From NCBI GenBank assembly GCA_023248155.1, contig JAHFFE010000003.1, forward strand, positions 108 through 64,107: a stretch of DNA of 64,000 bases, read 5' to 3'. Below the pieces are notes generated by a model that saw only the letters and a list, made by a program, of their open reading frames with translations, was not told the origin of the DNA and ran no database searches. How positions within the stretch are numbered: position 1 is the stretch's first letter; the number at the start of each line of letters is the position of its first letter. Source of the DNA: Candidatus Omnitrophota bacterium. GTDB taxonomy: Bacteria > Omnitrophota > Gorgyraeia > 1-14-0-20-64-10. Shown piece by piece: positions 6,378-56,272 of the stretch. Made by a program: the position numbers and the translations under genes.

Positions 6378-6378
6378 A

Positions 6379-14545: not shown

Positions 14546-14697
14546 CATCGCAAAATGCGACCAGTCATGGTTCGATAGGCTCACCACGACCGGATAATTA
14601 AGATCTCCGATAAAATGATTTGGGAATGATGTCTATCCTTGATATTGCTGAATACACACAAATATTGTAATATAAGAATTTGGACGGTGGATTGACA

Positions 14698-14717: not shown

Positions 14718-14721
14718 ACTT

Positions 14722-15374: not shown

Positions 15375-15381
15375 CAGGGTT

Positions 15382-16818
15382 TTAGAAGATGTGCTGGATG
15401 GAGCGGATGGAAATCGCCAGGAACGGATACTGCCAAATTCCCAGCACGAAGATTCCAATCAGGCAGGCAACGATCGACATCTTCATTGTGGTACCGATTT
15501 TGATCGGAGTAGCATCAACCGGTTCGTCGGCATAAAGCGTTTGGACGACCCGCAAGTAGTAGTAGAGTGAAATTACCACAGCCACCGCACCAATAATTGC
15601 CAGCGTTAAATAACCCTGTGACAAGGCACTTAAGACCAGTAGGAACTTTCCGAAGAATCCCGCCATCGGCGGAACACCTGCCAGCGATAATAGACCGATG
15701 AACATCGCCGCCGCCAAGAACGGTGACCGCTTTGAAAGCCCCGCGAACGATTTAATTTCATCGGAACCGGTTTGCAATGTAACCGCTGTAATTACGAGGA
15801 ACAACACCAGGTTTGTGAACAAATAGCCGAGCAGGTAATAGGAAACCGCTGCCGAGCCGATATCGACGCCGGCAGTAATACCCATCAATAAATAACCGGC
15901 ATGGCCGATTGATGAATAAGCCATGAATCGTTTGATATTGGTTTGCGGGATCGCGCAAAGATTGCCGTACAAAATGGTGGCTCCGGATGCGAATACCAGC
16001 ACGCTGTTCCAGGCCATCGAGAACGGCAGGAACAGTTCCTGCAAAATCCGCAGCGCCACCAAAAATGCCAGCGCCTTCGAGCCGACCGACAAGAATGCGG
16101 TGACCGGCGTGGGTGCGCCCTGGTAAACATCGGGCGCCCAAATTTGGAACGGTACCACTGCTGCTTTAAACAAAATGCCCGCCAGTACCAGCAAGATGCC
16201 GAACACCAGGCCGGCCGGTAAAGTCTGCGCGCGCAGAGACATCGCGTGGATCGTTTCAAAGTGCAGGGAACCGGTGGTGCCGTAAATAAAGGCGATGCCG
16301 TACAAGAACAGCGCCGAAGAAAGCGAGCCGAGCACGAGGTACTTCAGGCCGCTCTCGAGCGATTGCAGATTGGTATGCAGATAAGAGACCAGCACATAGA
16401 GCGTAATGGCGACCAGTTCGAGCGAGATGAATAGCATCAGGAAGTTGGCCGATGACGCGGCCAGGAACATACCGAGCACGGCGATTAAGAACAGCAGATA
16501 AAATTCGCCATGCGCGCGGTCAACCGCTTTTCCGAATTCGCGCGCCAGCACCAGCGCCACGATACCGGACACCGTAAAAATGCCCTTAAAAAATAGCGCC
16601 ATCGTATCGACGCGGAACATGCCGCTGAATAGTTCATGCGAGCCGCCTTCTTTGGCCAGCAGAAATAAAATGGGGAACAGCGGCAGCATGCCGGCGATGG
16701 CGATTAAGCCCATCAGCGGATGTTTCTCTTCGCCCCATTTTAGGTCCAGCGCCAATAGCAGGAAGATGATGGTGCTGAGCCATACCTCGGGTAATATCCA
16801 GAAGAGGGTGTGCATCAT
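15382..16818 (-). CDS. nuoN: NADH-quinone oxidoreductase subunit N
   Basis: 478-aa antiporter-like subunit (FLMLFISLELVAITLYVLVSY ...). Confidence 0.88.
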   Translation of the reverse strand: MMHTLFWILPEVWLSTIIFLLLALDLKWGEEKHPLMGLIAIAGMLPLFPILFLLAKEGGSHELFSGMFRVDTMALFFKGIFTVSGIVALVLAREFGKAVDRAHGEFYLLFLIAVLGMFLAASSANFLMLFISLELVAITLYVLVSYLHTNLQSLESGLKYLVLGSLSSALFLYGIAFIYGTTGSLHFETIHAMSLRAQTLPAGLVFGILLVLAGILFKAAVVPFQIWAPDVYQGAPTPVTAFLSVGSKALAFLVALRILQELFLPFSMAWNSVLVFASGATILYGNLCAIPQTNIKRFMAYSSIGHAGYLLMGITAGVDIGSAAVSYYLLGYLFTNLVLFLVITAVTLQTGSDEIKSFAGLSKRSPFLAAAMFIGLLSLAGVPPMAGFFGKFLLVLSALSQGYLTLAIIGAVAVVISLYYYLRVVQTLYADEPVDATPIKIGTTMKMSIVACLIGIFVLGIWQYPFLAISIRSIQHIF

Positions 16819-18293
16819 TTTAAGTGCGCCAGAATATTCGGTGTTGCCGTGGAAATAATTTCAAGCAGCGAGCGCGGCCAGATACCAACGATCATGAGTG
16901 CCGCCAGTAAAATGAGGTACGGAATTTTTTCAAAGTTAGTGGCGTCTTTTAACTCGGCCCATTTCGGATTGAGCGGGCCGAAGAAAGCGGTACGTACCGT
17001 CCGCAGCATATAAAACGCGGTGGTGACGATGCCGAAGATGGCAGCCAGCGCCGACCAGCGATAAACATTCCACGACGCGAAGAAGATCAACAGTTCGGAA
17101 ACGAAGTTGGCGAAGCCAGGCAAACCGCTGGATGCCATTGCTGCCATGATGAACAGTGTGGAAACAAACGGAATCTGCCGTGCCAGACCGCCCCATTCGG
17201 CGGTGATGCGGGTATGCGTTTGATCGTAAATATGGCCGATTGCCGCGAAGGCCAGTGCCGTCATGATGCCGTGCGCGAACATCAGCAGTACCGCGCCGTT
17301 TAATCCGACCGGGTTCATGCAGGCCAGGCCCAGCAATACATAACCCATATGGCTGGATGACGAATAACCGATTGTGAATTTAATATCTTTCTGCGCCATT
17401 GCCACGAAACCGCCGTATAAAATGTTCATGATCGCGATGATCGCCACCCAGGGCATCCAGAATTGCGCGCCGGCGGGCAGTAACTGCATGGCGATGCGCA
17501 AAATGGCGTAGGAGCCCAGTTTCATCAGCACGCCGGCATGCAGCATGCTTACAGCCGATGGCGCTGATGCGTGGCCGAGCGGCGACCAGGAATGCAGAGG
17601 CCACATTGGCGCGATCACGCCGAAACCGAACAGCAGGAACGGGAATACCCAGACCTGCAGTTGAGTCGGAAGCGGATTCTGCATCAAGTACCGCTCTAAA
17701 AAGATCAGGTCAAAACTTTGCGCGCCGCTGGCCAGATAAACGATTGAAAGACCGATGAGCGCCAACACCGCGCCGGCGGTCAGGTAAAGCGTCAGCTTCA
17801 TCGTGGCATATTCTTTGTCTTTCGATCCCCAGATGCCGATCAACGGGAACATCGGGATCACAGCCATTTCGTAGAACAGGTAGAAAAAGAACAGGTCGAG
17901 TGAAGCGAAGACGCCGGCCACGCCGCCGATCAAGAGCAGGTAGAAGATGTAATATTCTTTGACGCGCTTCTGCACGCGGTAGGAAACCAGTACGCCGGTA
18001 AACGAGCAGAGCGAGTGCAGAAGAACAAGCACGACGCTGATGCCGTCGAGGCCCACCTGATAATTAATGCCGAGCGTGGGAATCCAACTGATTTTTTCCA
18101 GACACTGATAGCCGCCGAGCACTTTATCGTAATGGTAAACGCAATGCAGGGCGATCAACAGCGGCACCGCCGTAAATGCGGTGGCGATCCAGCGAACCCA
18201 CTTGTCGCGCCCCTGCGGAACCATCATTAAAAGGATGGCGCCGATGATCGGCGATAAAACGAGTGCGCTTACTGGACCCATCGGAATACCCAT
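16815..18293 (-). CDS. nuoM: NADH-quinone oxidoreductase subunit M
   Basis: ~490-aa antiporter-like subunit (LFFFYLFYEMAVIPMFPLIGIWGS ...). Exact start uncertain (18293 or 18281). Confidence 0.88.
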   Translation of the reverse strand: MGIPMGPVSALVLSPIIGAILLMMVPQGRDKWVRWIATAFTAVPLLIALHCVYHYDKVLGGYQCLEKISWIPTLGINYQVGLDGISVVLVLLHSLCSFTGVLVSYRVQKRVKEYYIFYLLLIGGVAGVFASLDLFFFYLFYEMAVIPMFPLIGIWGSKDKEYATMKLTLYLTAGAVLALIGLSIVYLASGAQSFDLIFLERYLMQNPLPTQLQVWVFPFLLFGFGVIAPMWPLHSWSPLGHASAPSAVSMLHAGVLMKLGSYAILRIAMQLLPAGAQFWMPWVAIIAIMNILYGGFVAMAQKDIKFTIGYSSSSHMGYVLLGLACMNPVGLNGAVLLMFAHGIMTALAFAAIGHIYDQTHTRITAEWGGLARQIPFVSTLFIMAAMASSGLPGFANFVSELLIFFASWNVYRWSALAAIFGIVTTAFYMLRTVRTAFFGPLNPKWAELKDATNFEKIPYLILLAALMIVGIWPRSLLEIISTATPNILAHLK

Positions 18294-20161
18294 AAGAAGA
18301 TGGCGGCAAAACCAATCCAGACCATAAACGCGTAGCTCTGAACGCGCCCGGTTTGAATGCGGCGAAGGACCAGCCCGGTGACACCGGTTATTTTAGCCAT
18401 GCCGTTGGCGAACAGGCCCATGATTACATATTTCTCGAACAGGCCGAGGAATACCGCGCCTTGCTGTTGAACGTTCTGGTTTAAGTAGCGGTAAATCTCG
18501 TCGATCCAATATTTACGCGTGAGCGGTGTGGCCAGCCAGGTCAGTTTCTTTTGCGCGGCGGCGGAGGGCTGCATTCCTTTGCTGTAAATCATGAATGCCA
18601 GCGCGAGGCCGCCAATGGCTACAATCGACGAGATGATCGCCACCGTCATGTTGAACTCGACGTGGATGCCGCCATGCGTCGTGTGATGCAAGAATTCCGG
18701 GAAGCCCATGAAACCGCCGAAGATCGTCGGGATCGTTAACAGCATTAAGGGAATGGTCATCGCCCAGGGTGATTCGTGAATGCCGCCATGATGTCCGTGG
18801 GACTCCTCGTGATGATGAACGCGGCTTTCACCGAGAAACGCGATGCTGAACAAGCGGCCCATATAAAAGGCGGTGAGTCCGGCAGTCAGCGTGCCGACGA
18901 GATAAAGAATTTTATTCTGATGAAATGCGACAGCCAGAATTTCGTCCTTGCTCCAGAAACCACTGAGAGGAAAAATTCCGCAGAGTGCCAGTGTTGCCAG
19001 CAGGAATGTCCAGCCGGTGATCGGCATTTTCTTGAGCAGGCCGCCCATTTTCCAGATGTCGTTGCTGTGCACCGCGTGAATCGCCGAACCGGCTCCCAAG
19101 AATAACAGCGCTTTAAAGAAGGCGTGTGTGGTCAGGTGATAGATGCCGGCTGTGTAACCGCCGAGACCAAGCGCCATTACCATATAACCTAGCTGGCTCA
19201 ATGTAGAGAAGGCGAGAATTCGTTTAATGTCGTTCTCGACGAGCGCCATACTCGCGGCGAACAGGGCAGTAAACCCGCCGATCCAGGCAACCATGATCAG
19301 CGCCTGAGGCGCTTCCCAGAATAAGAAATAAGTCCGTGCAATTAAATAAACGCCGGCAGCCACCATCGTGGCGGCATGGATTAATGCGGAAACCGGAGTG
19401 GGGCCTTCCATCGCGTCGGGCAGCCAGACATGCAACGGGAACTGCGCCGATTTACCGAGCACGCCGCAGAAAACCAGCGCCGCGGCAACGGAGAGCGTTG
19501 CACTGGAAATTAATCCGCCATGAACAAATTCCGGAATCCGATGGGCCAGTTCAACAAAGTTGAGTGTTTTTTCGTGTCCGCCGAGGCCGGAGATATTCCA
19601 GAGCGTTAAGATACCGAGTAAAAATCCGAAGTCGGCGATGCGGTTTACCAAAAATGCTTTTTTGCCGGCGGCGGCTGCGCTGGGTTTCTCGTACCAGTAA
19701 CCAATCAACAGATAAGAACTGGCGCCGACGAGTTCCCAGAAAATAAAGAGGCTGACGAAATTATTGGAAAGGACAATGCCGAGCATTGAGAAAGCAAACA
19801 GTGACAGGCAGGCGAAATAACGGGTGTAGCTGCGATCTTCCTTCATATAACCGGTGGAATAGATAAAGACCATTAATCCGACGCCGGTCACCACGAGACT
19901 CATCAAGATGGCCGGTTTATCGAGCAGAAGACCAAACTCCAGCAATAGGCCGGGCAGGTTAATCCAGTTGAGTGAACTTTGAATAATCTGCGGATGTTCG
20001 CCGCCGGCATGCATCAGCGCTTGCAGCGCGCAGACGAAGCTGACTACCAAGCCGCCGATGGCTAATGCGGTGCTGGCCGGTTTTGATTTACGCGCGCCCA
20101 GAACAATGGCCACACAGGCCAGCAGCGGCGCAAACAGTAAAATCCAGGGAAGGGCTACCAC
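18269..20161 (-). CDS. nuoL: NADH-quinone oxidoreductase subunit L
   Basis: ~630-aa antiporter-like subunit (SLFIFWELVGASSYLLIGYWY ...). Present start is probably the GTG at 20161-20159, giving MVALPWILLF. The ORF-track TTG at 20182 lies inside the terminal inverted repeat of the inserted element. Confidence 0.85.
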   Translation of the reverse strand: MVALPWILLFAPLLACVAIVLGARKSKPASTALAIGGLVVSFVCALQALMHAGGEHPQIIQSSLNWINLPGLLLEFGLLLDKPAILMSLVVTGVGLMVFIYSTGYMKEDRSYTRYFACLSLFAFSMLGIVLSNNFVSLFIFWELVGASSYLLIGYWYEKPSAAAAGKKAFLVNRIADFGFLLGILTLWNISGLGGHEKTLNFVELAHRIPEFVHGGLISSATLSVAAALVFCGVLGKSAQFPLHVWLPDAMEGPTPVSALIHAATMVAAGVYLIARTYFLFWEAPQALIMVAWIGGFTALFAASMALVENDIKRILAFSTLSQLGYMVMALGLGGYTAGIYHLTTHAFFKALLFLGAGSAIHAVHSNDIWKMGGLLKKMPITGWTFLLATLALCGIFPLSGFWSKDEILAVAFHQNKILYLVGTLTAGLTAFYMGRLFSIAFLGESRVHHHEESHGHHGGIHESPWAMTIPLMLLTIPTIFGGFMGFPEFLHHTTHGGIHVEFNMTVAIISSIVAIGGLALAFMIYSKGMQPSAAAQKKLTWLATPLTRKYWIDEIYRYLNQNVQQQGAVFLGLFEKYVIMGLFANGMAKITGVTGLVLRRIQTGRVQSYAFMVWIGFAAIFLWVFRWVQ

Positions 20162-20457
20162 CCCGCACCTTTGCCCGCACAAAGACTATGTTCTATGCGA
20201 CCTTTCAACTGTCCGAGTGCTTTTCCATAATATTTAAGCCTATCTTCTCGCAACGAGGCGTCTTTCTCCGACTTGTAAGCTTCATAATAGACTAGTTGGA
20301 TAGGTAAACGATGCTTGGTGGAAGCAGACATTCCGTTCTTATGTTCGTTTATTCTCTTTTGAATATCTGCGGTTCGTCCAATATATAATTTCCCATCCGC
20401 CTCGCTTTTAAGGATGTATACATAGAACATTTGCGGGCAAAGGTGCGGGGCTACCAT
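20155..20457 (-). CDS. GIY-YIG nuclease-domain protein (YhbQ/UPF0213-like)
   Basis: Sequence FYVYILKSEADGKLYIGRTADIQKRINEHKNG ... Y fits the GIY-YIG motif. The ORF-track start at 20457 is the ancestral nuoL ATG; the element-internal start is likely ATG at 20430 (MFYVYIL). The C-terminus runs into the left TIR. Confidence 0.7.
   Translation of the reverse strand: MVAPHLCPQMFYVYILKSEADGKLYIGRTADIQKRINEHKNGMSASTKHRLPIQLVYYEAYKSEKDASLREDRLKYYGKALGQLKGRIEHSLCAGKGAGW
20161..20179. repeat. left terminal inverted repeat of the GIY-YIG mini-element
   Basis: 19/19 reverse-complement match to 20432-20450. Confidence 0.7.
20432..20450. repeat. right terminal inverted repeat of the GIY-YIG mini-element
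   Basis: 19/19 reverse-complement match to 20161-20179. Confidence 0.7.
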
Positions 20458-31365: not shown

Positions 31366-34300
31366 ATGCGACGCGATTTTTTATTTGTCCGCTTTGTTGC
31401 CCTCTTTTTAATCCTTTCACAGACTTTTTCCGCCGGAGTTCAGGCAGATAGGGCTGTTTCTTCAGACGTTCTGCGCCAAATTTCGCCGCCAGAAGCCATC
31501 TCCTCATCAGCCGGTATCGCCGATTCTTTATCGGCCGGTTCCGGGTTGGAAGAAAAAGTATGGGTGAATGGGATTCTTCCTAATTTAAGGCGGACGGCAA
31601 GGAATGCCTCAGACCAAAAAATTGCTGCCGGGGTTTTGTCTCTTTTGGAGAGATGGGCGGATCGGCCGGTTGACGCGGCCGGATCTGTTCGTTCTCCTGG
31701 CCAACTTGCGCTGGAAATCGCCGCTATTTTAGGCCGGACGGAGGATATTTCCTGGCGATTGTTTTTGCAGGATCAGTTGGAACGGCTCTCTCTGTTAAGG
31801 GCTAGGGAAGGGAATGAGCAGCACCTTCAGGCCCCCTGGAACAAAAAACTTACCTCCCGTGAATATCCGGATGATTTCTTAAATACGGTTCCCCGGGAAT
31901 TAGTCAACGCGCTCTTCAAAAACCCCGATGTTGTCGCGTTAAGTTCTTTCGTTCAAACGGAAGTTCAGCCGGTTCAATGGCTTGATGTCAGAGAAGGTGC
32001 TGATCGGCTTCAGCCGACGAGTGAGCCCGGCGATTGGGTTTCGTTTTGGAGCCAGTTAAAAGACCCTGCCACCCAAATAGTCTGGGTTGGTGAAAGTTTG
32101 TTTGGTTACGCGACGGCCCGATCAACACTTCGTATTCAGGTGGTTGCGCAGGGGAAAGGACCTTTGCCGATCGGGCAAAGGGTTGCCCTGGAGATTCCAC
32201 TGGCCAATAACCACGGCAATAAGGTTCAGGTTGTTTCTCCTTCGGAGGGCATTATTTCTCGAGAGCCGGGACTGCTGATTTCGTTCTCCCAGCTATTTCT
32301 GGAGGAGGTTCCGGGCGTTTATCGGTTGAATAAGGATTTTCTGACGGAACGTCTCTTATCTGTCTGGGGAATCAGAGAATATCTTCGAAGGACAGAGGCG
32401 GGGAATCCGGAAATCGCGTTGGGCTGGGAGGCGTTGAAGCAGTATCAGGCGCAATGGGAAATTTTTATCCACGCCGAAATCAACGATCCCCAGTTGCGCG
32501 AGGCGTTGCAGATATTTGAAAAGTGGGTTTTGGATCCTGGGCAAGTTTCTCCCGCTGAGCTTGCCGATCGATTGGCTGCCGCGTCCGGGCGTTTGCCGCG
32601 GGAGACGGCGGCACAATGGGAGGACTGGATTTTCTCCCAGCGCGAAAGTTTCGCGGGGCCTGACCGGGATCCATATGAATTCTTATCCCGCCTGGCGGAG
32701 CATGTCGCCTCGGAACCAAATCCCTTAGTTATCTCAGAGCTGGCTCCATGGCTTCTCGATCAATCGAAGCCATTCATCAGAGAACATGATGCATTGGGGG
32801 AGTTGCTGGATTCCCTGGATCTCGCGGCGGCCGGGGAAACGCGGACAATGGCGGAGCAAATTCAGCAAAGAGAGCAAGGCCTGAAACGACTGGCGGAGGA
32901 TCTTTCGCTGCGAGTAGAGGAATTGCTTAATCGTCCCGAGCGGGAATGGAAAAATCTTTTATTACTGCGCCTGGGAGAGCTCAGTTATTTCCGTCATCCG
33001 GATGCGGCCTGGAACCAGCAAATGAACGAGCCGGCTCAATCGGAGGAAAGCATCCTCGATGCGATCCGCGGATTGATCAGATTCCCTCCGGCGGATTCCT
33101 TATCCGTTGGGCATTTTCTCGCGGACATTCAGAAGAGACCTCTCTCCGGAGTCCGAATGGAGAGCGAAACGGGTTCCGGCCGTTTTGTGATGGGAGAAGC
33201 CGCGTCGCTGGCCGAAGCGGTTTCAAGAAGCCCGGAAGTTCGTTTGGTTTCTGATTTTCTGGAACTTGACCCCTCGAATGGTTCTTCCATCGAATTGCTT
33301 GTTCGGCTGGGAAGAGATTTCCAGAGTGCTTCGGCGGGGCAATGGATCCGGGTTCAAATTCCTCCCCGTTTTGGCGGGGGATTCGGCCGGGACAAAGGTC
33401 CGGTGACTTCGCGTGAACTCAACGCAGTCCGTTCGATTCGCGTTGATCCGTCCGATCTCTTTTTTGTATGGAGGGGGCGCCTCTACATCGACGGTGGCTA
33501 CCTGTCGACGGTCTATTTAACTCTGCATAATTTATTGGAGCAGAATCGCATCGAACAGGGCGGAACGGATTCCGCGGCGAATGAGCAGGCGCTGCGTTTC
33601 AAGACCCTTCTTGATTTTGATCAACACCAGGAACAGATTCGTATCCGGTTCCTGCATCAAACGCTGCTGGATGGTCTTCGGGCGTATCAGGAATTTGTGC
33701 ATGGCCGAAGCGGGGTTTCTGTCGCGCTGGCCGTCTATGGAGCGCTGGCCCCTACCGATATGGATATTCTCGAGAGGGAACTCCAGAAAGAGGAGCCGCA
33801 TTGGCCCACCGTGCTCCGTTATCTGCTGGCGCTTCAACAGGGAATCTATCGTTTCCTTGAAGATCACAAGCATTCCGTCCCTGGAACGCGCCGGCTGAAT
33901 CAACAGCTCGAGCTAGTGGACGCGATGTTGGATGATCTTTTATTGAATCGGCCTGAACTGGCCCGAGAGACTTCGGCTTCCGTCCGTTCTTTTAAGCGTT
34001 CGCCCTGGTTGTCGTTTGCCGCCGGCGTCGCGGCAGGGGGAGTGGTTGCCGTAGGAATGCGCCGGACCCCGCCTACCGTTGTTACGACAAGAACTGTGGA
34101 GAGCGAATTAGCCGCCCCGCATCTTTCTGTTGGGCTTAAGACGGATGCCGAAGACAGCCGCGGAAGAAGGCCGGCGCTCAATCCGGGGCAGGTCCGTTTT
34201 CGCCTGCCTGTTCCCGGCGCGGACATTCTCAATGTCGTGGAAAATCATCTGCTGGTGGCTGCTCTTTACCAGAAAGATCCGGAGGGTCGCTATCGGTTGG

Positions 34301-37300
34301 TTTCCCGGCGGGATGCGGATCCTTCCGAGAGCCGTGTGGTTGATTTCCGTTTAAATCCGGATCAGCTAAGGCAGGATCAGGAACTGATCGCCGTTACGTT
34401 CCCGGCCGAATGGGTGACAAATTCCGGCCTGCCGAATTCTTTCCAGCAGATTTCTGATTTAACGCATGAAGAAATCGGCGCCTGGGTGGCCGCGCGCGTT
34501 TCGAATGGATCCGCGCCCGAAATTCTGCTGGACCAATCGAGGACCATCCTTCCCGTCCAGGTGACCCGAGCTCCCGAGGGAGATTTTCAGCAGGCTCAAT
34601 TTCCAAATCAGATCGCGGCGTTGATGCAGGGTCTGTCGTACGCGATTTATCAGAGGCAGGAAGGCGCTTCACCGGGATATCGCCAGGTTGGCAGCGGCCT
34701 GTTTCAGGCCGATGCGCCATTAAGCGTTCCTTCGGGAGGATTAGCGCTTCTTTTGCCGCGGGAATCGACCGCTCAGCCGCCTCCGTTTCTGGAGGCGCTG
34801 AACCAGCTGGCCGACGGATTGGTCGTCCGGATTTTCGGATCGAAAGCTCTTTTGGCGCATGCGCGGTCATCCGTTTTAAATTCAGGGCTGGAAGAAAAAG
34901 GGGTGATTCAGAGATTGTCGCCGATTAAAACGGAGAGTGATCTTTTTGTCGGAGATTGGGTTGCTTGGAGTTTGCCCGGGCAAACTTCGCCCGATTATTT
35001 TGAAGTTCAAGCGATTAATTCGGACGGCGCAGAGATTTTGCCGATTTCCAACGAGACGGGCATTGACGCCGCGGCGGCTCCGGCATTTGTTTCCTGGCAG
35101 GATCTGAAGCGTTTTTACCGCTCGATGCCGATGGCGGTGGGGCAGGCCTTCTTTTATCTGAATCTTTATCAGCGTTTATCTTTGGACGAACTGCCTTCGG
35201 CCGAGCCGATGCTGAAGATGCTTCAGCAAGAAACAATTTCTCTTTCCCAGATTACCCGGCAAACAGAATCGGCCTGGAGCGCGCTGCGGTCCGTTTGGGT
35301 GAACGGCGGCTATGCCCGATTGAGCGGTCTGCTTAAATTGGGAACTGATGCCGTTGACGCGCCGGTTATTCAGGCCGCTTCCGGCCCTCATTTTTCACCC
35401 TCGGCTTCTCACCGGGTCAGCGCCAACCAATTGGCCGCGAGCGCGGTTTTGTCAGTATTGGACTCCATGAAGTTTGGGGATGACCCGGATGATGCCGTGG
35501 GAAACGCGGGAGCTGTGGTTGGGTTTGGAAACGAAGGCAGTTTAGAAGCAACTGTTATTCCGGAGCAGTCTTCCTCCCAGGTTATTTCCGGTTCAGGCTG
35601 GGTTGATTCGGTTCCGATTGAAGCTACGGCGGATTCTTCACCGGATCCGGCTCTTCAGCTCGATTCTTCCGTTCCTCCCGTCGCGATTGCTGAGTTGTCA
35701 GCGCCTCCTTCCGGTGTTGTTGAAAGTGATTTACAGGATGGTTCTACGCGGGGAATTGCCGCTGGAGAGACTCCGCCGGGCCGTGTTTTTCCTTCGACGG
35801 CATCTTCTCTGTTGCCGGTGCTCGCTGAAGCAGCCGGTGTTCCTTCCATTGGCAAGATGAAAGCGGGAGATCTTTTCGAGTTGTTATCCGATACGCTTCC
35901 GACGAAAGAAGCGCCGCTTCAACTGTTATCTCAGCAGGGTTCTTTATTGTCCGCGGTGAACGCGTTGGTTTCGGAACCGATTCCTTCTGATGAACGGTCA
36001 AAAATCGCCCGGCTAGAAATACTGAATAATTTACTGCATCGTTCCTTGGTCGGTTTGAATTTACTGGCCCTTGAGCCGAGGGCTCTTCCGGATGATTCGG
36101 AAAAGATAATGACCAAAGCGATTTATTTAAGGCGCCAAGCGCTGGTTCAATCCGGATTAGCGGTTAATCCGGCCGCCTCTTTGGAAAAAACCCGACTGCA
36201 GCGGTGGGCCGCCGGCGCGGGAGGAGGGCTAACGCGACGGGAACTGCTTTCTGGTGGCGCCGGGGCTCCGTTGGGATGGGCTGCTTCGGCATTAATTCCT
36301 TTGGCCCGGGCTGAACAAAGAGAAGTCACCGTAGAGGTTCCGAGGCAAATTCCCGTGCTAAACGGCAAGGTGCTTTTAAAACCGGAGGAACAAAAAATCC
36401 TGATCCCGATTCCTCGTTCCCGCGCTGAACAGGTGGCGAATATCCGGCGCCCCCGCTCGGATGATCTGGTGGTTCTTTACCGCTATGATCCGGATTTAAA
36501 AAAGTATATCAAGATCGGGGAAACGCTGGTTTTTTCAGACGAATCTATTCCCGTGGATGGGGAACGGGTGGCTGAAATTAATTTTGAGGACGGCAAAGAA
36601 GTAAACTCTTTGGGCGGGCTTTTGGTCGCGGTTTATCCGGCGGAGGAGCAGGCGGATCTGCTGGAGGTCATTGATTTGGAATCGGCCGGTTCCCGCCCGT
36701 CGGTGACTGCCTTGAAAAAGAAATTGGGAGATCAGCTGAAGACTCCAAAACATGTTCATCCCACATTGTACGATGTTGTGCTGGACGGAAAACTGGACCG
36801 GCTTTTTGATTACCGGCCATTGGCTTTACATCTGGAAAATTCACCGCGCGTTGTTGAGCAAGGGGAGCGGCTCGAGTTTCGTCTGCCTCCGGGGCTGCGG
36901 CGGCGCGCGGAGGGTTTTTCGGCCGTGGCTTTTCAATTTATCCAGTACTCAGAGAAAGAGGATGGACCCAAGAAAACGGTTTTACTTCCACAATCTATTT
37001 CGCGAATCTCAGATGAGGGCTGGCTTTCCTTTGGCCGGAATCAGCAGGAAAATTTACCTCCGGGCGTTCCAAATTCAAATGGCTGGGAGAAAAGTACTCC
37101 TATCGTGTTAGTATTCTCCAACGAATTTCTGGCGCAGCAGGCATTTCAAGGGGCTGTCACTGTTTGGCGGAAGGGAAAACCGATTCGCTCCGTTGATTTT
37201 CGGCTTTTCCCGCAGGCTTCCTTTGGTTTTCTCGTACAAAAAAGGGGTTCCAATAACAGTCTCCAAATTTATTGGGAAGGACGAACGCCTCAGCAAGAGA

Positions 37301-37821
37301 AACCGCCGGTGGTTGCGGTTCCTAAAAGCGGCCTTGAAGAATCTGTTTCTGTGGGGATATTGCCCCTGGATCAGGCGCGGCGGTTTGATCCGGCTGCGCG
37401 CGGCGGCATCCTTTTGCCTTTGCCCGATGAAGCAGGGCTTGAAGAATCCGCGGCTGTCATCGCTGATAACGGACTGTCTCCGGTAGCCGGGGTGCCTTGG
37501 ATAGGCGGCGGATCGGGCGTTAGTCAGGTGCTCGCGAAAGCAATCGGCATGAACGCACAGCCGGGACAAAACCTTGTGCTGGTGATGGCCTCTCCCGGTG
37601 TAACAGCTGAATCTGTTCAAGCGGTTCTCAGCGCGGAACGTCTCGATTCTTTCCCGCGGGTTGTGGTTGCTTCGCCGGAGCAGGTTACTCAATTTACGCG
37701 GCAGACAATTTCCAGGTTGGCTGCTGTTTCTCCGGCGCTGCCCCCGGTCGTAGTTTTGGTGGTCGCGCAAAGGGTTCAATCGGAGTCCGGCCAACAGTTT
37801 ACTTTACTGATCTGGGCGTAA
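31366..37821 (+). CDS. giant secreted hypothetical protein (2151 aa)
   Basis: Signal peptide MRRDFLFVRFVALFLILSQTFSAGVQA. The rest is a very long uninterrupted ORF with no recognisable catalytic motif and a Ser/Pro/Ala/Asp-rich low-complexity region around aa 1380-1500. Confidence 0.6.
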   Translation: MRRDFLFVRFVALFLILSQTFSAGVQADRAVSSDVLRQISPPEAISSSAGIADSLSAGSGLEEKVWVNGILPNLRRTARNASDQKIAAGVLSLLERWADRPVDAAGSVRSPGQLALEIAAILGRTEDISWRLFLQDQLERLSLLRAREGNEQHLQAPWNKKLTSREYPDDFLNTVPRELVNALFKNPDVVALSSFVQTEVQPVQWLDVREGADRLQPTSEPGDWVSFWSQLKDPATQIVWVGESLFGYATARSTLRIQVVAQGKGPLPIGQRVALEIPLANNHGNKVQVVSPSEGIISREPGLLISFSQLFLEEVPGVYRLNKDFLTERLLSVWGIREYLRRTEAGNPEIALGWEALKQYQAQWEIFIHAEINDPQLREALQIFEKWVLDPGQVSPAELADRLAAASGRLPRETAAQWEDWIFSQRESFAGPDRDPYEFLSRLAEHVASEPNPLVISELAPWLLDQSKPFIREHDALGELLDSLDLAAAGETRTMAEQIQQREQGLKRLAEDLSLRVEELLNRPEREWKNLLLLRLGELSYFRHPDAAWNQQMNEPAQSEESILDAIRGLIRFPPADSLSVGHFLADIQKRPLSGVRMESETGSGRFVMGEAASLAEAVSRSPEVRLVSDFLELDPSNGSSIELLVRLGRDFQSASAGQWIRVQIPPRFGGGFGRDKGPVTSRELNAVRSIRVDPSDLFFVWRGRLYIDGGYLSTVYLTLHNLLEQNRIEQGGTDSAANEQALRFKTLLDFDQHQEQIRIRFLHQTLLDGLRAYQEFVHGRSGVSVALAVYGALAPTDMDILERELQKEEPHWPTVLRYLLALQQGIYRFLEDHKHSVPGTRRLNQQLELVDAMLDDLLLNRPELARETSASVRSFKRSPWLSFAAGVAAGGVVAVGMRRTPPTVVTTRTVESELAAPHLSVGLKTDAEDSRGRRPALNPGQVRFRLPVPGADILNVVENHLLVAALYQKDPEGRYRLVSRRDADPSESRVVDFRLNPDQLRQDQELIAVTFPAEWVTNSGLPNSFQQISDLTHEEIGAWVAARVSNGSAPEILLDQSRTILPVQVTRAPEGDFQQAQFPNQIAALMQGLSYAIYQRQEGASPGYRQVGSGLFQADAPLSVPSGGLALLLPRESTAQPPPFLEALNQLADGLVVRIFGSKALLAHARSSVLNSGLEEKGVIQRLSPIKTESDLFVGDWVAWSLPGQTSPDYFEVQAINSDGAEILPISNETGIDAAAAPAFVSWQDLKRFYRSMPMAVGQAFFYLNLYQRLSLDELPSAEPMLKMLQQETISLSQITRQTESAWSALRSVWVNGGYARLSGLLKLGTDAVDAPVIQAASGPHFSPSASHRVSANQLAASAVLSVLDSMKFGDDPDDAVGNAGAVVGFGNEGSLEATVIPEQSSSQVISGSGWVDSVPIEATADSSPDPALQLDSSVPPVAIAELSAPPSGVVESDLQDGSTRGIAAGETPPGRVFPSTASSLLPVLAEAAGVPSIGKMKAGDLFELLSDTLPTKEAPLQLLSQQGSLLSAVNALVSEPIPSDERSKIARLEILNNLLHRSLVGLNLLALEPRALPDDSEKIMTKAIYLRRQALVQSGLAVNPAASLEKTRLQRWAAGAGGGLTRRELLSGGAGAPLGWAASALIPLARAEQREVTVEVPRQIPVLNGKVLLKPEEQKILIPIPRSRAEQVANIRRPRSDDLVVLYRYDPDLKKYIKIGETLVFSDESIPVDGERVAEINFEDGKEVNSLGGLLVAVYPAEEQADLLEVIDLESAGSRPSVTALKKKLGDQLKTPKHVHPTLYDVVLDGKLDRLFDYRPLALHLENSPRVVEQGERLEFRLPPGLRRRAEGFSAVAFQFIQYSEKEDGPKKTVLLPQSISRISDEGWLSFGRNQQENLPPGVPNSNGWEKSTPIVLVFSNEFLAQQAFQGAVTVWRKGKPIRSVDFRLFPQASFGFLVQKRGSNNSLQIYWEGRTPQQEKPPVVAVPKSGLEESVSVGILPLDQARRFDPAARGGILLPLPDEAGLEESAAVIADNGLSPVAGVPWIGGGSGVSQVLAKAIGMNAQPGQNLVLVMASPGVTAESVQAVLSAERLDSFPRVVVASPEQVTQFTRQTISRLAAVSPALPPVVVLVVAQRVQSESGQQFTLLIWA

Positions 37822-37825
37822 TTTT

Positions 37826-38422
37826 TTAAATAATAGTTGCCGCCATCATCGCCGCCATATAATCCGCAAAAGTCATTCCGTACATCGCCAGGAACTGATC
37901 GTCGATATCAATATCTCCGTCTCCATCGAAATCAGTATCAGTGCTCGTGATATCGACAGTATCTTCCATGTCGGTTTCATTGATCACGTCATCGGTATCC
38001 GTCGTATCGGTGATGTCGATTTCCGGCTCGATGAAAGCGGCTTCAGCCGCCGGAGGTTCAACTACCAGAGCAGTTTCTACCGGAGGAGCCGTTGTTTCCG
38101 CGGCGGCGGCAGGCGCTGCCGGGGCTGTCACTATTACGGCCGCGGGTGGAGCAATCACGGTGACCACCGTGGTCGGAGCCGGAGTCACGGCAGCTGGAGC
38201 AACGAACGCGGCCGCGGCCGCTTGAGCCGGGTTCATGGCCATGGCAACGGCTTGCATCGCTTCCAACGCCGGATCTTTGGCCGTTGGGTTCATTGTATTG
38301 GACTGCGGGATAACGGCCGCCGTTTCGGTGGACGGAGGCGCCATCATCGCTTCTGCGTTATTAGTGAAGATCGACATCGTAGTGAAAGTAACGGTCAAAA
38401 TAAAAACGACAACTTTTCTCAT
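37826..38422 (-). CDS. secreted low-complexity protein with Ala/Pro/Thr-rich core and Asp-rich C-terminus
   Basis: Start at MRKVVVFILTVTFTTMSIFTNNAEA (signal peptide). The C-terminus has calcium-binding-like repeats (DTDDVINETDMEDTVDITSTDTDFDGDGDIDIDD). Confidence 0.5.
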   Translation of the reverse strand: MRKVVVFILTVTFTTMSIFTNNAEAMMAPPSTETAAVIPQSNTMNPTAKDPALEAMQAVAMAMNPAQAAAAAFVAPAAVTPAPTTVVTVIAPPAAVIVTAPAAPAAAAETTAPPVETALVVEPPAAEAAFIEPEIDITDTTDTDDVINETDMEDTVDITSTDTDFDGDGDIDIDDQFLAMYGMTFADYMAAMMAATII

Positions 38423-38550
38423 TGAAATCTCTCCTTGTTGGATAACAGATAAATAAAAAGCCGCCTTCGCTCCCCGCTGTGCGCGGGTCGCGAGAGACGG
38501 CATTGTGGTTGTACCAGTAAAGTTTTTCATTGTCTTGGTAGCCTGGCTAA

Positions 38551-38619
38551 CCGTTCTGGTTCCATGGCTTTGCGTCCCCAGATTCCTCTGGGTTTGCCTT
38601 TTTCAAGCAAACTAACTAC
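38551..38619. repeat. copy 1 of a duplicated ~65-bp intergenic motif (TGGCTTTGCG - 6-bp-stem hairpin - TTTGCCTTTTTCAAG-AAACTA)
   Basis: Aligns with 38730-38810 with identical 31-nt spacing between the two conserved blocks. The hairpin is cccaga-ttcc-tctggg. Confidence 0.55.
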
Positions 38620-38729
38620 TTAATTTATGAAGCTAAGGCGACTCTCCTTATTAACAAAAAAGCCTTGGTCAGGAACCCCTGATCAAGGCACATGATATGG
38701 CGTTTTATTGTCATATCTTGGCAGCTCGG

Positions 38730-38810
38730 CAGTCCTTTTTAGGGATCCGTGGCTTTGCGACCTTGGATTACTCCAAGTGTGCCTTTTTCAAGAAACTACA
38801 TTGCAACTGA
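38730..38810. repeat. copy 2 of the duplicated intergenic motif
   Basis: Same conserved blocks. The hairpin is cttgga-ttac-tccaag, with compensatory base changes relative to copy 1. Confidence 0.55.
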
Positions 38811-38930
38811 TTAGCTACATGGGAACTATACCTGCCGTGTAGTGAAAAAGTCAAGGGGTCGATGAAATTTTTATATCTACATAATGCTATTGATAGCAAC
38901 AGGTTATGTTCATATGATACAATAACCGCC

Positions 38931-39857
38931 ATGGAAATTCAGGACTCACCCTATTTAAAACAATTGTTTGTCTGCGTCAACAAGAAAGAGCAGGGGAAAT
39001 CGTGCTGCGCCGACAAACAGGGAGAGCTGATCCGCGATCGGCTCAAGGCTTATGTCAACGACCATGGCTTGAAGGGAAAAGTACGTGTTTCCGGATCGGG
39101 CTGCGTTGATTTTTGCGAGCAGGGTGCCAACATCATGGTTTACCCGGATTATAAGTGGTATTCGCATGTGACACCGGCCGATCTCGATAAAATCATCGAA
39201 ACGGAATTAAAACCGCTGGTGCCGGCACTCGACGCCGGTTCTTCGGGACCGAAACCGGTCCAGGCCTTTTTGTTCGATCTGGGCAATGTGTTAATCCGGT
39301 TTGATCATATGCTGGCGGCCAAACGGCTGACGAACCGCACCGCGATCCCGCCGCTGGCGCTCTATCAATTGGTGTATGAATCGCCGCTGGTGACCGATCA
39401 CGATGAAGGGCGCATTTCAACGCGCCAGTTTTACGAAGGGGTGCAGCAGCAACTGGGCGTCAAGATTCCATACGAGGAATTCGTCGATGTCTGGAACGAG
39501 ATTTTTTGGGAAGAGAAAGAGATGACCAGCCGCGTCGAGTGGCTGCTGCAAAATTATCCCGGATACCTGATCTCGAACACGAACCGTCTTCATTTTGATT
39601 ATTTGCGCCGCTGGTACCCTGTATTGGAGAAATTGAACGGCTGGATTTTATCGTACGAAGTCGGCGCGCTCAAACCCAAGCCGGAAATTTATCAGCGCGC
39701 GCTGGAGATGATCAAGCTGCCGGCTTCGAAAGTTCTCTACATTGATGACCGCGCCGATCTGATTGAGGCCGGCCGCCGTCTCGGATTCCAGACGCACCGG
39801 TTCACCGGATGGCAGGCATTTTCGCGTGATCTGCAGACCCGCGGAATTTTCGTTTGA
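38931..39857 (+). CDS. fusion protein: thioredoxin-like [2Fe-2S] ferredoxin domain + HAD-superfamily hydrolase domain
   Basis: N-terminal domain with Cys ligands (LFVCVNKKEQGKSCC ... GSGCVDFCEQGANIMVYPDYKWY). C-terminal HAD motifs (FLFDLGNVLIRFD ... YLISNTN ... KPKPEIY ... YIDDRADLIEAG). The ORF-track start at 38862 is also possible. Confidence 0.55.
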   Translation: MEIQDSPYLKQLFVCVNKKEQGKSCCADKQGELIRDRLKAYVNDHGLKGKVRVSGSGCVDFCEQGANIMVYPDYKWYSHVTPADLDKIIETELKPLVPALDAGSSGPKPVQAFLFDLGNVLIRFDHMLAAKRLTNRTAIPPLALYQLVYESPLVTDHDEGRISTRQFYEGVQQQLGVKIPYEEFVDVWNEIFWEEKEMTSRVEWLLQNYPGYLISNTNRLHFDYLRRWYPVLEKLNGWILSYEVGALKPKPEIYQRALEMIKLPASKVLYIDDRADLIEAGRRLGFQTHRFTGWQAFSRDLQTRGIFV

Positions 39858-39923: not shown

Positions 39924-40808
39924 ATGTCTTCCCTAGAGTCCAACATTAAGGCCCTCATCAAGCTGCTGGGGGATGACCATCCGGATGTGGTGGAAGCGGC
40001 GCGATTAAAACTCGTTGAAATGGGCGATACGGCGCTTCCTTTCCTGGAGAAAACAGCGCTCTCCGGCGAAGATTCCAAAACGCGCGTGGAAGCCAAGCAG
40101 GTGATGGAAGGGATTCGTTTGGCATCGCTCAACCGTGATTGGGCGGCGAACGCCCGTCTTTCCGATAAGAAGCTCGATCTGGAACTGTCCGTTTTTCTGC
40201 TGGCGAAAGTATTGTATCCCGCGCTGCGGTTTGCGGAATATCAGCAGAAACTCGATGAGCTGGCTGAGAAAGTCCGCCGTAAAATCCGCTGGCTCCGGAA
40301 GCCGGAATCGCGCCTGGCTGCGATGAATGCCGTGTTGTTTGATGACGAAAAATTTCAGGGTAACTGGGGCGATTATTTTGATCCGCAGAACAGTTATCTC
40401 AACGCTGTACTCGATCGCAAGGTTGGCATCCCGATCAGCTTGTCGGTGCTGGTTCTGCTGATCGCCAAGCGAGCGAAAATTCCTCTTAAAGGCGTCGGGA
40501 TTCCGGGCCATTTCATGGTGAAATACCAGGACGATCAGCGCGAAATTTATCTGGATCCGTTTAACGGCGGCCGGATGCTGACGCGGCCTGAGTGCGTGCA
40601 GTTTATTTTGGAGGCCGGTTTCCCATATCAAAAGGAATTTCTGGAGCCTGTTTCATCGCGCGATATCCTGGGACGGATGCTGCGCAACTTGATTTTGATT
40701 TACTTGGACCGTCATGAAAAAACGCTTGAAAAAACATTGACCCGCTTCCTTGATCTAATTTATGAAGAGACGGGCTTTCAAATAAAACCGCTGGGAGAAC
40801 TTGAATAA
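39924..40808 (+). CDS. transglutaminase-like (Transglut_core2 / SirB1-family) protein
   Basis: YFDPQNSYLNAVLDRKVGIPISLSVLVLLIAKRAKIPLKGVGIPGHFMVKY resembles the SirB1/YchA family core. Confidence 0.5.
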   Translation: MSSLESNIKALIKLLGDDHPDVVEAARLKLVEMGDTALPFLEKTALSGEDSKTRVEAKQVMEGIRLASLNRDWAANARLSDKKLDLELSVFLLAKVLYPALRFAEYQQKLDELAEKVRRKIRWLRKPESRLAAMNAVLFDDEKFQGNWGDYFDPQNSYLNAVLDRKVGIPISLSVLVLLIAKRAKIPLKGVGIPGHFMVKYQDDQREIYLDPFNGGRMLTRPECVQFILEAGFPYQKEFLEPVSSRDILGRMLRNLILIYLDRHEKTLEKTLTRFLDLIYEETGFQIKPLGELE

Positions 40809-41641
40809 TGAAGATTCGGATTGGACACAGCCCCGACCCCGATGATGCCTTTTTATTTTACGGGATGACGCAGGGCAAGATTCCGCTGAACGGTTTTACC
40901 GTCGAGCATTTCCTGGACGGCATCGAAGAGTTGAATCAGCGCGCGCTGAAGGGCGAGATGGAGATGACGGCCATTTCACTGCATGCCTATCCGTACTGCG
41001 CCGATAAATACAAGATTCTGACGGCGGGGGCCAGCGTGGGCGAAGGCTACGGGCCGATCGTTGTGTCAAAAAAGCCGATGGAACTGGCCGATCTTAAGAA
41101 AGTGCGCGTCGCGGTTCCCGGAACGATGACGACCGCGTCATTGATGCTGCAGCTGGCGCTGGGGCAAGCGATGAAATTTGAAGTACTGCCGTTTGACAAG
41201 ATATTGGAGGCGGTGCGCGACGGCGCCGTCGACGCCGGTGTGATCATCCACGAGGGCCAGATCACTTATCCGGAATTCGGCGTTCATAAAATTCTCGACC
41301 TGGGAGACTGGTGGGAAAAAGAGACGAAACTTCCGGCGCCGCTCGGCGTGAATGTGGTGCGCAAGGATCTGGGCGAGAAAACGATGGTTGATCTGGCGCG
41401 GCTGTTCAAGCAGAGCCTTGATTATTCGTACGCGCACCGGCAGGAAGCGGTGGAGTACTCAATGAAATATGGGCGCGGTTTGAATGCCAGTCTGACCGAT
41501 AAATTTATCGGCATGTATGTGAACCGTTGGGCTGTTGATTGCCGGCCCGATGCCGCGCGCGCGATGCAGCTGCTGCTGGACCGTGCCGCCGACGCGAAAC
41601 TGACGCCGCGCAAGGTTCAGTTGGAATTTGTGGAGATATAA
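40808..41641 (+). CDS. menaquinone (futalosine pathway) biosynthesis protein, MqnA/MqnD family (MqnD-like)
   Basis: N-terminus MKIRIGHSPDPDDAFLFYGM resembles the MqnD SPCPNDTF region. Confidence 0.5.
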   Translation: MKIRIGHSPDPDDAFLFYGMTQGKIPLNGFTVEHFLDGIEELNQRALKGEMEMTAISLHAYPYCADKYKILTAGASVGEGYGPIVVSKKPMELADLKKVRVAVPGTMTTASLMLQLALGQAMKFEVLPFDKILEAVRDGAVDAGVIIHEGQITYPEFGVHKILDLGDWWEKETKLPAPLGVNVVRKDLGEKTMVDLARLFKQSLDYSYAHRQEAVEYSMKYGRGLNASLTDKFIGMYVNRWAVDCRPDAARAMQLLLDRAADAKLTPRKVQLEFVEI

Positions 41642-53842: not shown

Positions 53843-56272
53843 ATGTCCGAGATTTTGTTCCGTCCAACGGAAGATCAGATTCTCGAGCAGGAGGTTCGCC
53901 GGCACGTCGCGGTAACCACCTGGGATAAGCTGATTTCCATGCTCGACCCGGTTTATAACTGGGGCCGCAGCAACTCCGTCTGGCCGCTGCAATTCGGTCT
54001 GGCCTGCTGTGCGATCGAAATGATCTGCACGGCGGCCAGCCGGTTTGACATCGCACGGTTCGGCGCGGAACTGTTTCGCGCCTCTCCGCGTCAGGCCGAT
54101 CTGATGATCGTCTCAGGGACCGTCACCAAGAAAATGGTCCCGATGATCGTCCGCCTCTACAATCAGATGCCGGAACCGAAGTATCTGATTTCGATGGGCG
54201 CCTGCGCCAGTGCCGGAGGTCCTTTCAAGGAAGGGTACAATGTCGTTTCCGGCATCGACAAGTTTTTGCCCGTCGATGTCTATATCCCGGGCTGCCCTCC
54301 GACGCCGCAGGCGTTGCTGAACGGTTTGATCACGCTGCAGGAAAAAATCCACGGACAAAAAATCTCGACGGCGCGCTGGTATTCGGAAGGCCCGGGGCAG
54401 GAAGTTCCGGTTCCTTTGCTGGGTCCCGATTTAATTGATACGCGCCGCAATCAGGAAATCAAAGAAATCTGCGCGCTTCCCGAACCGGCCAAGCCGGCCG
54501 TTCTTCCTTCCTATATAACGGCTCCCAAACTGACACCGACTGAGGCCGAGGGTGCATCTGCTGCGGCGGTCGCTTTGGCGGCGCGATTAAACAAGGCCGT
54601 GGGGGATGGCTCGGTAACGCTATCCGGCAGCGCTCTGCTGGTAACGCCCGCTTCATTGCAGGCTGTGGCCTCTTACTTGAAACTGCAGCCGGATCTGAAA
54701 TTAAATTATCTGACCAATCTGACCTGTGTCGATTATCAGGACTGTTTCGAGGTGGTTTATCATCTGCAGTCGTTGCCAGGCACCGGCGCTCCGTTGGCAT
54801 TGAAAGTACGCGCCGACAAAACCGACCCGCGTGTTCCGACGGTCATGGGCATATGGCCCGGCGCCGATTTTCAGGAGCGGGAAGTCTTCGATATGTTCGG
54901 CGTCCGTTTTGAAGGTCATCCGAATCTGAAACGAATCCTGATGTGGGATGGCTTTCATGGGTACCCTCTGCGCAAAGATTATCTTGAGGCTTACTATGAA
55001 GCCCCCGGCAAAATCTTCCCGAGCCGCTGGAAAGAAGGGCACCATCAGCGCGCCGAGGAAAAAGCCCGGTTCGGCGATAACTTAAAATATCCGAATGGTT
55101 TTGATCCGGCATTGTTCCAGCCGGCCAAGGAATCGTTCGCGGCGGGGACGCCGGCGGTTGCCGACGGCATCCGGACCGATGATCTGGTGATCAACCTGGG
55201 ACCGCAGCACCCGTCGACGCACGGCGTTTTCCGCATGAAGATCCGCGTGGACGGCGAACGAATCCTGGCGCTCGAGCCGGTCATGGGCTACATGCACCGC
55301 AACCATGAGAAGATCGGCGAGCGCAACAACTACCTGATGATTTTCCCGTATACCGACCGCCTCGACTACATTTGCTCAATGGGCAATAACTTCGGTTACG
55401 CGCTGGCCGTCGAGAAACTGTTGAATGTCAAGCCGACCGAGCGCGCCGAATATATCCGCGTGATCATGGCCGAGCTGACCCGCATCGTCAGTCATTTCTG
55501 GGCCGTTGGATTTTTATTGAACGACCTGGGTGCTTTTTTTACGCCGGCGCTGTACGCGATTGAAGAACGGGAATTGATACTCGATCTGTTTGAGATGGCC
55601 TCGGGTTCGCGCATGATGTGCAATTATTTCCGGTTTGGAGGCGTTGCGGCCGATCTGCCCGCGGAATTTTTGCCGATGGCCAAAGCACTGGTCAATGACC
55701 GCATCCCGAAGGCGATCGAGCTGATGGACAACTATCTCGCCAAAAATGAAATCTTACTGAATCGATGCCGCGGCGTCGGCGTTCTGCCGAAAGACGCGGC
55801 GATCGCTTATTCGGCCGCCGGTCCGGTACTGCGCGCTTCCGGTGTGTCGTATGATTTGCGCAAGGCCGATCCGTACTCGATCTATGACCGGTTTGATTTC
55901 GATGTTCCGACGGCGCAGGAGGGCGATGTTTACGCGCGCTACCGCGTCCGGATCGCCGAGATGTGGGAATCGCTCAAGATTTTACGCAAAGCGCTGGCCG
56001 AAATTCCGGCCGGTGAGATTCAGGCCGGAAAGAAATTGTGGAACATCCGAGTTCCGGCCGGCGAATCGTACGGCCGCGTCGAGAATCCAAAAGGCGAGCT
56101 GGGCTACTATATTGTTTCCGACGGCACCGATCATCCGTACCGTTACCATGTGCGCGCGCCGTCGTTCATCAACCTGACGGCACTCGAAAAAATGTGCAAG
56201 GGGCACCTGGTCGCTGATGTGGTGGCGATCCTCGGTTCCATCGACATTGTGCTCGGGGAGACCGACCGGTGA
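53843..56272 (+). CDS. nuoBCD: triple-fused NADH-quinone oxidoreductase subunits B, C and D
   Basis: 809-aa single ORF. NuoB segment: GLACCAIEM ... [11 protein letters not shown] ... PGCPPTPQ. NuoC segment: [16 protein letters not shown] ... [25 protein letters not shown]. NuoD segment: [15 protein letters not shown] ... ends [14 protein letters not shown], with no NiFe-hydrogenase Cys motifs. Confidence 0.85.

Follow-up and report, generated by a model that had tools for sequence, protein, structure and literature searches.

The minus-strand leader of the gene at 38422..37826, which encodes a secreted protein, is best explained as a series of two complete riboswitches of the c-di-GMP-I (GEMM-I) class, with an aptamer and a terminator in each (probability about 0.9); an OFF-type model is preferred for it. 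Both aptamers lie on the minus strand, carry the canonical ligand-contact nucleotides and are followed by terminators, and this tandem layout is conserved in two related loci. c-di-GMP is the probable ligand, and the OFF direction and a sharper response are predicted from the model given below. The original prediction for this region described a duplicated motif with a covarying hairpin. A textbook element accounts for that finding fully, with a correction of the strand as well as of the target gene.

Identity of the repeated motif

The duplicated motif was recovered by the repeat finder as one 53-nt direct-repeat family (38558-38610 and 38743-38795) with 77% identity, and the start-to-start distance of 185 nt agreed with the spacing first described. 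The sequence TGGCTTTGCG was common to both copies. The two hairpins with a 6-bp stem and a 4-nt loop were likewise found, at 38577-38592 (CCCAGA TTCC TCTGGG) and 38762-38777 (CTTGGA TTAC TCCAAG); three of the six stem pairs differ between the copies, each being changed on both sides. The shared blocks were present as claimed, but the second one had to be corrected to TGTGCC in copy B, where copy A has TTTGCC. Similarly, the (C/A) difference after CAAG is real, but it is in nature a 1-nt indel (CAAGCAAACTA vs CAAGAAACTA). The intergenic length of about 440 bp is right for the ORF calls (38423-38861), although the true start of the plus-strand gene is probably further on, at 38932.

The whole 64-kb window, that is, the entire stretch of DNA analysed, was scanned with Rfam at gathering thresholds, and exactly two matches were obtained, both on the minus strand. 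Both were to RF03167 (c-di-GMP-I-GGC, clan CL00126) over model positions 1-80 of 80. The E values for the 64-kb window were 1.9e-13 and 4.1e-13, so the match is far beyond chance. Furthermore, a low-threshold Rfam scan of 37700-39000 on both strands turned up neither another credible RNA nor a third aptamer. The matched elements and the flank of the first are as follows.

38716..38792, minus strand: c-di-GMP-I aptamer 1 (RF03167, 65.1 bits, E 4.1e-13; P1, P2 with a GUAA loop, P3)
38533..38607, minus strand: c-di-GMP-I aptamer 2 (RF03167, 66.2 bits, E 1.9e-13; P1, P2 with a GGAA loop, P3)
38793..38800, minus strand: 5' flank UGUAGUUU of aptamer 1 (from the aptamer-enforced fold; invariant in three genomes)

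Read on the minus strand, TGGCTTTGCG becomes CGCAAAGCCA, and TTTGCCTTTTTCAAG becomes CUUGAAAAAGGCAAA, which runs from the P1 5' strand through the J1/2 junction into the first part of P2. The AAACTA block becomes UAGUUU and is able to extend P1. In the aptamer-enforced fold, the flank 38793..38800, which corresponds to this AAACTA block, can pair with 38715..38709, lengthening P1 of aptamer 1.

The hairpins with their T-rich runs had been taken as plus-strand terminators or attenuators directed toward the HAD gene. The supposed terminator stem is actually the P2 stem of a c-di-GMP-I aptamer with its GNRA loop, and the supposed terminator tail is simply complementary to the GAAAAAGGCA(A/C)AC joining region, which is conserved, a purine-rich GAAAAAGGCAAAC junction that contains the ligand-contacting G. 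A consensus scan did flag both hairpins as terminator-like on the plus strand, and both fold. However, the folds are weak (-8 to -9 kcal/mol), the stems are of 6 bp only, and the T run, itself explained as the complement of the aptamer junction, is interrupted (TTTGCCTTTTT). No Rfam match was obtained on the plus strand, whereas both repeats are full-length matches to the model on the minus strand. Moreover, no plus-strand gene ends upstream, and the likely promoter and start of the HAD gene (38890-38932) lie downstream of the repeats. The G-U pairs in P3 of the orthologs would become A-C mismatches on the opposite strand, which also counts against a plus-strand reading. Plus-strand terminators or attenuators are thus extremely improbable, and the link to the HAD gene did not hold; the element belongs to the minus-strand secreted-protein gene.

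Structure and covariation of the aptamers

Each aptamer folded alone into P1/P2/P3. Pair counts were based on six aptamers from three sequences, namely the window, a related locus (L007) and a Logan contig (L008). A standard pair was found in 95.5% of the cells of the canonical structure (22 pairs over six aptamers), and the slid-register controls were 18-46% paired. Six pairs were changed on both sides among the six aptamers. The covariation score was reached by none of 500 shuffles in a sample of modest statistical power (six sequences, two lineages plus paralogs). P3 of the orthologs showed compensatory changes as well as G-U pairs.

The earlier view that the compensatory changes reflect RNA structure and not a protein-binding palindrome is sustained, as the stem changes preserve pairing and the riboswitch model is matched. 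Judged by covariance score, by the supported P1/P2/P3 and by the ligand-contact bases described below, the two RNAs are members of the c-di-GMP-I clan. The repeat is therefore two complete sensor RNAs of a known c-di-GMP class, real, conserved and ordinary as members of it.

Ligand-contact positions

In the c-di-GMP-I prototype Vc2, the residues contacting c-di-GMP are G20, A47 and C92, and an inter-helix Watson-Crick pair between P2 and P3, C44-G83, is universally conserved (PMC4744006; PMC11218506). The contact equivalents are G38783 (G20), A38756 (A47) and C38721 (C92) in aptamer 1, and G38598, A38571 and C38538 in aptamer 2. The six aptamers show no variation at the corresponding alignment columns 10 (G), 37 (A) and 73 (C). 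The candidate inter-helix C (column 34; GAC/GUC, in the P2 3' internal loop) and the candidate inter-helix G (column 64; unpaired AG/UG, in the P3 3' strand) are invariant in the six as well, and these two columns probably pair as the inter-helix C-G.

RF03167 was the highest-scoring clan member for every one of the six aptamers, with 64-71 bits against a gathering score of 59. The GGC variant was reportedly defined by Weinberg et al. (PNAS, 2017). Judging from the model consensus, GGC probably denotes the bases at positions 20/47/92. The consensus of the GGC model, ACGCGAAgCc, and the canonical ACGCAAAGCC differ at the A47 equivalent alone. At this position the stretch reads CGCAAAGC in all six aptamers and is a mismatch to the GGC model in every alignment; the G that appears to mark the RF03167 variant occurs in none of them. 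In cGAMP-sensing GEMM-Ib RNAs, an A is expected at the position equivalent to G20, where all six aptamers have G.

These positions bear on whether the aptamers might be of the true c-di-GMP-I-GGC type or of the cGAMP-sensing GEMM-Ib type, with a ligand other than c-di-GMP. The lead of RF03167 in the clan scores of all six would agree with this. On the other side stand the A at the A47 equivalent, the G at the G20 equivalent and the C at the C92 equivalent, and two weaker matches of the same clan in the window also exceed their own gathering scores. A different ligand is considered very unlikely. The occurrence of G, A and C at the three contact positions in all six points to canonical c-di-GMP sensors, built on a scaffold that happens to score best with RF03167. 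The best Rfam match to the GGC model does not imply a variant binding site.

Conservation of the leader

P0002, a relative of the regulated protein, is encoded in GCA_964607585.1 (locus L007) and on the Logan contig L008. One related genome was found for the comparison; two further loci (L001 and L002) were identical to the window and contributed no added variation. The L007 locus is syntenic with the window, with SDR, DUF2203, VitK2_biosynth, Transglut_core2 and HAD genes, which are divergent from the small gene. L007 and L008 each have two RF03167 matches (64-71 bits) in the same order and orientation as in the window, with a terminator after each aptamer. The presence of the tandem pair in a second genome shows the copies to be functional units and contradicts a recent local duplication with random differences in the hairpins. 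Since the pair is common to both lineages, the duplication is older than their split. A genome scan for synteny via the HAD protein found nothing, and a metagenome scan gave only four HAD-only relatives with 36-39% identity, none with a riboswitch.

The mean column identity of the three aligned leaders was 90%. The promoter hexamers, both aptamers, both terminators, an RBS-like relic and the RBS are kept in all three; differences occur in the promoter spacer and in part of the linker ahead of terminator 2. The identities between the window and L007 were as follows.

Leader: 87.9% nt identity
Three neighbouring genes, whole CDS: 87-88% nt identity
Three neighbouring genes, third codon positions: 68-74% identity
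Regulated CDS: 70% nt identity, 55% aa identity

The identity of the leader is above that of third codon positions and of the regulated protein. The leader is therefore under purifying selection, which acts on it much more strongly than on the protein it controls.

The same comparison can be set against two other readings, a pair of protein-binding operators and a local duplication that is decaying and has no present function. The region does lie between divergent genes, and the whole unit (aptamer, terminator and RBS-like box) looks duplicated. However, the changes in the stems are compensatory with the structure kept, the conserved single-stranded nucleotides fit the riboswitch model, and both copies with their terminators are ~88% identical where third codon positions are ~70%. 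An operator pair or a decaying duplication is therefore given next to no weight beside tandem riboswitches.

Organization of the leader

The remaining elements, from the promoter to the regulated gene, are listed below in the order of transcription.

38825..38854, minus strand: sigma-70-type promoter TTGACT-18 nt-TATAGT (promoter scan; hexamers invariant in L007, spacer varies)
38694..38717, minus strand: linker hairpin GAUAUG...CAUAUC, separating aptamer 1 from terminator 1 (seen in several folds; conserved)
38677..38693, minus strand: 5' strand of terminator 1 and putative antiterminator arm (duplex energy; truncated-transcript MFE; inverted repeat I3)
38689..38662 (stem) and 38661..38656 (U6 run), minus strand: terminator 1 (-17.6 kcal/mol, z = -4.2)
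38642..38649, minus strand: RBS-like AAGGAGAG (unit alignment, repeat families D2/D3; invariant in three genomes)
38522..38532, minus strand: CAAUGAAAAAC, directly 3' of aptamer 2 (invariant in the alignment)
38451..38501, minus strand: terminator 2, with a 42-nt stem (38501..38460) and then UUUUUAUUU (-32.4 kcal/mol, z = -5.9)
38429..38436, minus strand: RBS AAGGAGAG of the regulated gene (read from the sequence; invariant in the alignment)
37826..38422, minus strand: regulated gene of 198 aa, ATG at 38422 (translation)

The minus-strand transcription start is predicted at ~38818. Each aptamer has a terminator of its own, and the pair shares one promoter, one RBS/ATG and a single gene downstream. 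Terminator 1 has the sequence GCCUUGAUCAGG-GGUU-CCUGACCAAGGC plus U6, and its stem is kept in the ortholog despite an indel (-19.2 kcal/mol); terminator 2 of the ortholog has -31.1 kcal/mol. Both minus-strand terminators end in a clean U run and are self-contained, beginning 26 and 31 nt after P1.

The unit-to-unit alignment indicated that the whole module was duplicated, including the aptamer, the terminator, the U run and the AAGGAGAG box. The box at 38642..38649, which comes after terminator 1, is not followed by a start codon; it could be a relic left when a whole leader unit was duplicated, or could serve some function itself. In addition, CAAUGAAAAAC complements the UUUUUAUU tail (U run) of terminator 2 and is paired with the U run in MFE structures. 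The ~20 nt that follow CAAUGAAAAAC vary between genomes, and its counterpart in unit 1 is weaker, being CAAUAAAAC.

Proposed mechanism of the two units

RNA polymerase starting at the promoter 38854..38825 would pass terminator 1 and then terminator 2 on the way to the RBS and ATG. In unit 1, the arm 38693..38677, of which the part 38693..38686 is UGUGCCUU, has its complement in 38793..38777, a segment spanning the P1 5' strand, J1/2 and the P2 base of aptamer 1. The energy of this antiterminator duplex was -19.1 kcal/mol, and 1.2% of shuffled arms were as good. In a transcript truncated before the 3' strand of terminator 1, the antiterminator was the MFE structure, with -39.6 kcal/mol vs -32.6 kcal/mol for the aptamer-enforced fold, thus lying 7 kcal/mol below the latter. 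In silico, it excludes both the ligand-bound core and the terminator. Its arms are invariant in the three sequences, which is consistent with the model and leaves no covariation for testing the pairing.

Without ligand, the 5' strand of terminator 1 would pair with the 5' part of aptamer 1 to give the antiterminator, and transcription would continue. With c-di-GMP bound, this aptamer segment would be locked in P1, J1/2 and P2, and the terminator would form and stop transcription. The significant antiterminator suggests that unit 1 is an OFF switch. In the full-length unit 1, the terminator fold was the MFE structure even without the aptamer constraint; hence the OFF model is based on kinetic, co-transcriptional reasoning.

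For unit 2, no significant complementarity was detected between the aptamer and the 5' strand of the terminator (-14.5 kcal/mol, poorer than the average of the shuffles). The linker ahead of terminator 2 contains few G residues, differs between genomes and lacks complementarity to the terminator. Two other pairings were considered and rejected. The 5'-flank hairpin AGUUUGC/GCAAAC is present in the window as a candidate antiterminator of unit 2, but it is not conserved in L007 or L008; the pairing of the RBS-like box with CUCUC of terminator 2, noticed by eye, is a weak one and unconnected with the aptamer. Terminator 2 is so stable that ligand control of unit 2 is unexplained by the current model, and the OFF direction is assumed for it by homology and analogy with unit 1. 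With two OFF switches in a row, binding of the ligand by either of them would be enough to end transcription, which would make repression tighter, steeper and more switch-like. A sharper response is expected of tandem riboswitches (PMC4759541, PMC12452182).

The direction of regulation could also be different. The characterised natural tandem array Bc3-5 from B. thuringiensis is ON-type (PMC4759541), and unit 2, having a very strong default terminator and no recognisable antiterminator, resembles an ON switch in this respect. Both units might then be ON, or unit 1 OFF and unit 2 ON, so that c-di-GMP would be needed or the response would be band-pass. However, the overlap of the terminator with the 3' side of the aptamer, as in Bc3-5, is absent in both units, the linker before terminator 2 speaks against it through the features just given, and the antiterminator between aptamer and terminator in unit 1 is significant and typical of OFF switches. 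An ON or mixed arrangement is unlikely, although it has to be taken seriously.

Furthermore, the two switches might not be equivalent, with unit 1 as a conventional OFF switch and unit 2 having an undescribed read-out or the opposite direction (e.g. band-pass). The stable terminator of unit 2 (-32 kcal/mol), the lack of a detectable antiterminator and the invariant A-tract 38532..38522 lead to this idea, which we regard as rather improbable. If it were true, the sole output of such a device would be a fast-evolving orphan secreted protein in a c-di-GMP lifestyle switch. Two OFF-type riboswitches in series remain the preferred reading.

Regulated gene and genomic context

The regulated gene is monocistronic. 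The 198-aa protein has a signal-peptide-like N-terminus (MRKVVVFILTVTFTTMSIFTNNAEA), a middle part rich in Ala, Pro, Thr and Val, and a very acidic C-terminal half; its pI is 4.05, with 29 D+E vs 3 K+R. Pfam gave no family for it, a word-indexed search returned only the protein itself, and a scan of species-representative genomes found no relatives. An exhaustive HMMER search of 1.84 billion representatives yielded a single relative, P0002 (152 aa, E 1e-16). What the two proteins share is limited to the N-terminal third, with the signal peptide/N-terminal motif, and a C-terminal aromatic motif, DDxFxAxYGxT...Y..A.MA.T. P0002 lacks the acidic D/T-rich block (about residues 130-175), which is specific to the window. 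The protein is fast-evolving, with 55% aa identity vs 91-95% for its neighbours.

A 2151-aa plus-strand ORF (31366-37821) converges on the regulated gene, the stop codons being 4 nt apart. No Pfam family was found for this ORF at E <= 0.01; its N-terminus is signal-peptide-like, and its product may be a giant secreted or surface protein.

On the other side, the HAD/ferredoxin-like ORF on the plus strand was called from 38862 (331 aa), whereas its L007 ortholog begins with an ATG that corresponds to 38932 (308 aa); the 23 extra N-terminal codons of the call are not conserved in L007. A conserved TGATACAATA(A)CCGCC stands directly before ATG 38932, and a promoter-like TTGATA-17-TATGAT is located at 38890..38918 on the plus strand, before the HAD gene. 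The 5' end of the HAD gene is suggested to be very short or leaderless. For the N-terminal [2Fe-2S]-like part of the protein, Pfam matches were only sub-threshold (DUF1636, Suc_Fer-like).

A Transglut_core2 gene (39924-40808, plus strand) is located two genes away on the opposite strand and is not downstream of the riboswitches. Tandem c-di-GMP-I riboswitches have been described upstream of transglutaminase-like (COG1305) genes in Bacillota (PMC12452182); the proximity here may be coincidental. The surroundings are a chromosomal housekeeping context, and the sequence comes from metagenome assemblies (ERZ27280021, SRR14366787). There are two sets of NADH-quinone oxidoreductase genes (5300-20200; 53843-56272), with a fused NuoE/F (7773-9581) and a fused NuoB/C/D (53843-56272), and a futalosine-pathway menaquinone gene at 40808-41641.

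Through its leader, a lineage-restricted, rapidly evolving secreted protein that belongs to no known family is marked as a probable output of c-di-GMP signalling, here in an organism not yet in culture. This gives a lead to the biology of the protein, which might concern, for example, a cell-surface matrix or a motile-sessile switch.

Comparison with known systems

The present RNAs agree with the c-di-GMP-I class (CL00126/RF01051) and its prototype Vc2 from Vibrio cholerae in having P1, P2 with a GNRA loop, and P3, and in the conserved GGCAAACC...GACGCAAAGCC core. The equivalents of G20, A47 and C92 and the inter-helix C-G bases are present, as are the position in a 5' leader and a terminator-based expression platform. 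Unlike Vc2 and RF01051, however, the scaffold scores best with the GGC-variant model, P1 is short with 4-5 core pairs, and the P2 loops are GUAA or GGAA and not GAAA. As regards RF03167, the GGC model accommodates the A-rich J1/2 junction and short P3 well, but the present copies have A at the A47 equivalent, and the conserved G of the model is absent.

Cd1, located upstream of flgB in Clostridioides difficile, is an OFF-type c-di-GMP-I riboswitch. As in Cd1 and in the OFF-type Bc1 from the B. cereus group (PMC11218506), a separate intrinsic terminator follows each aptamer, and ligand binding is expected to favour termination. In contrast to these, the putative antiterminator in unit 1 draws on the aptamer's 5' side (P1 5' strand, J1/2) across ~85 nt and not on the P1 3' strand. 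Moreover, Bc1 has one aptamer with two terminators (PMC11218506), whereas two aptamers are present here.

The closest arrangement to be compared is Bc3-5 from Bacillus thuringiensis (PMC4759541), which likewise has complete units in series with their own terminators and similar copies, and for which a more digital response is expected, as here. Bc3-5 has three ON-type units, and its terminator overlaps the 3' part of the aptamer, including the C92 equivalent, the P1 3' strand and part of P3 (PMC4759541). In contrast, the present leader has two units with separate terminators, an OFF-looking unit 1 and just one small orphan gene as the target. The c-di-GMP-I riboswitches form an extensive and much-studied class, for which complete units in tandem are on record with statistical enrichment (PMC12452182), and experiments have characterised a triple array (PMC4759541). 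The features specific to this case are the target, a fast-evolving secreted orphan, the use of the aptamer 5' side in the antiterminator, the platform of unit 2 and the mismatch between the Rfam model and the binding site; they do not take the leader outside the known kind. It therefore adds a conserved two-unit example to the known tandem tendency of c-di-GMP-I riboswitches.
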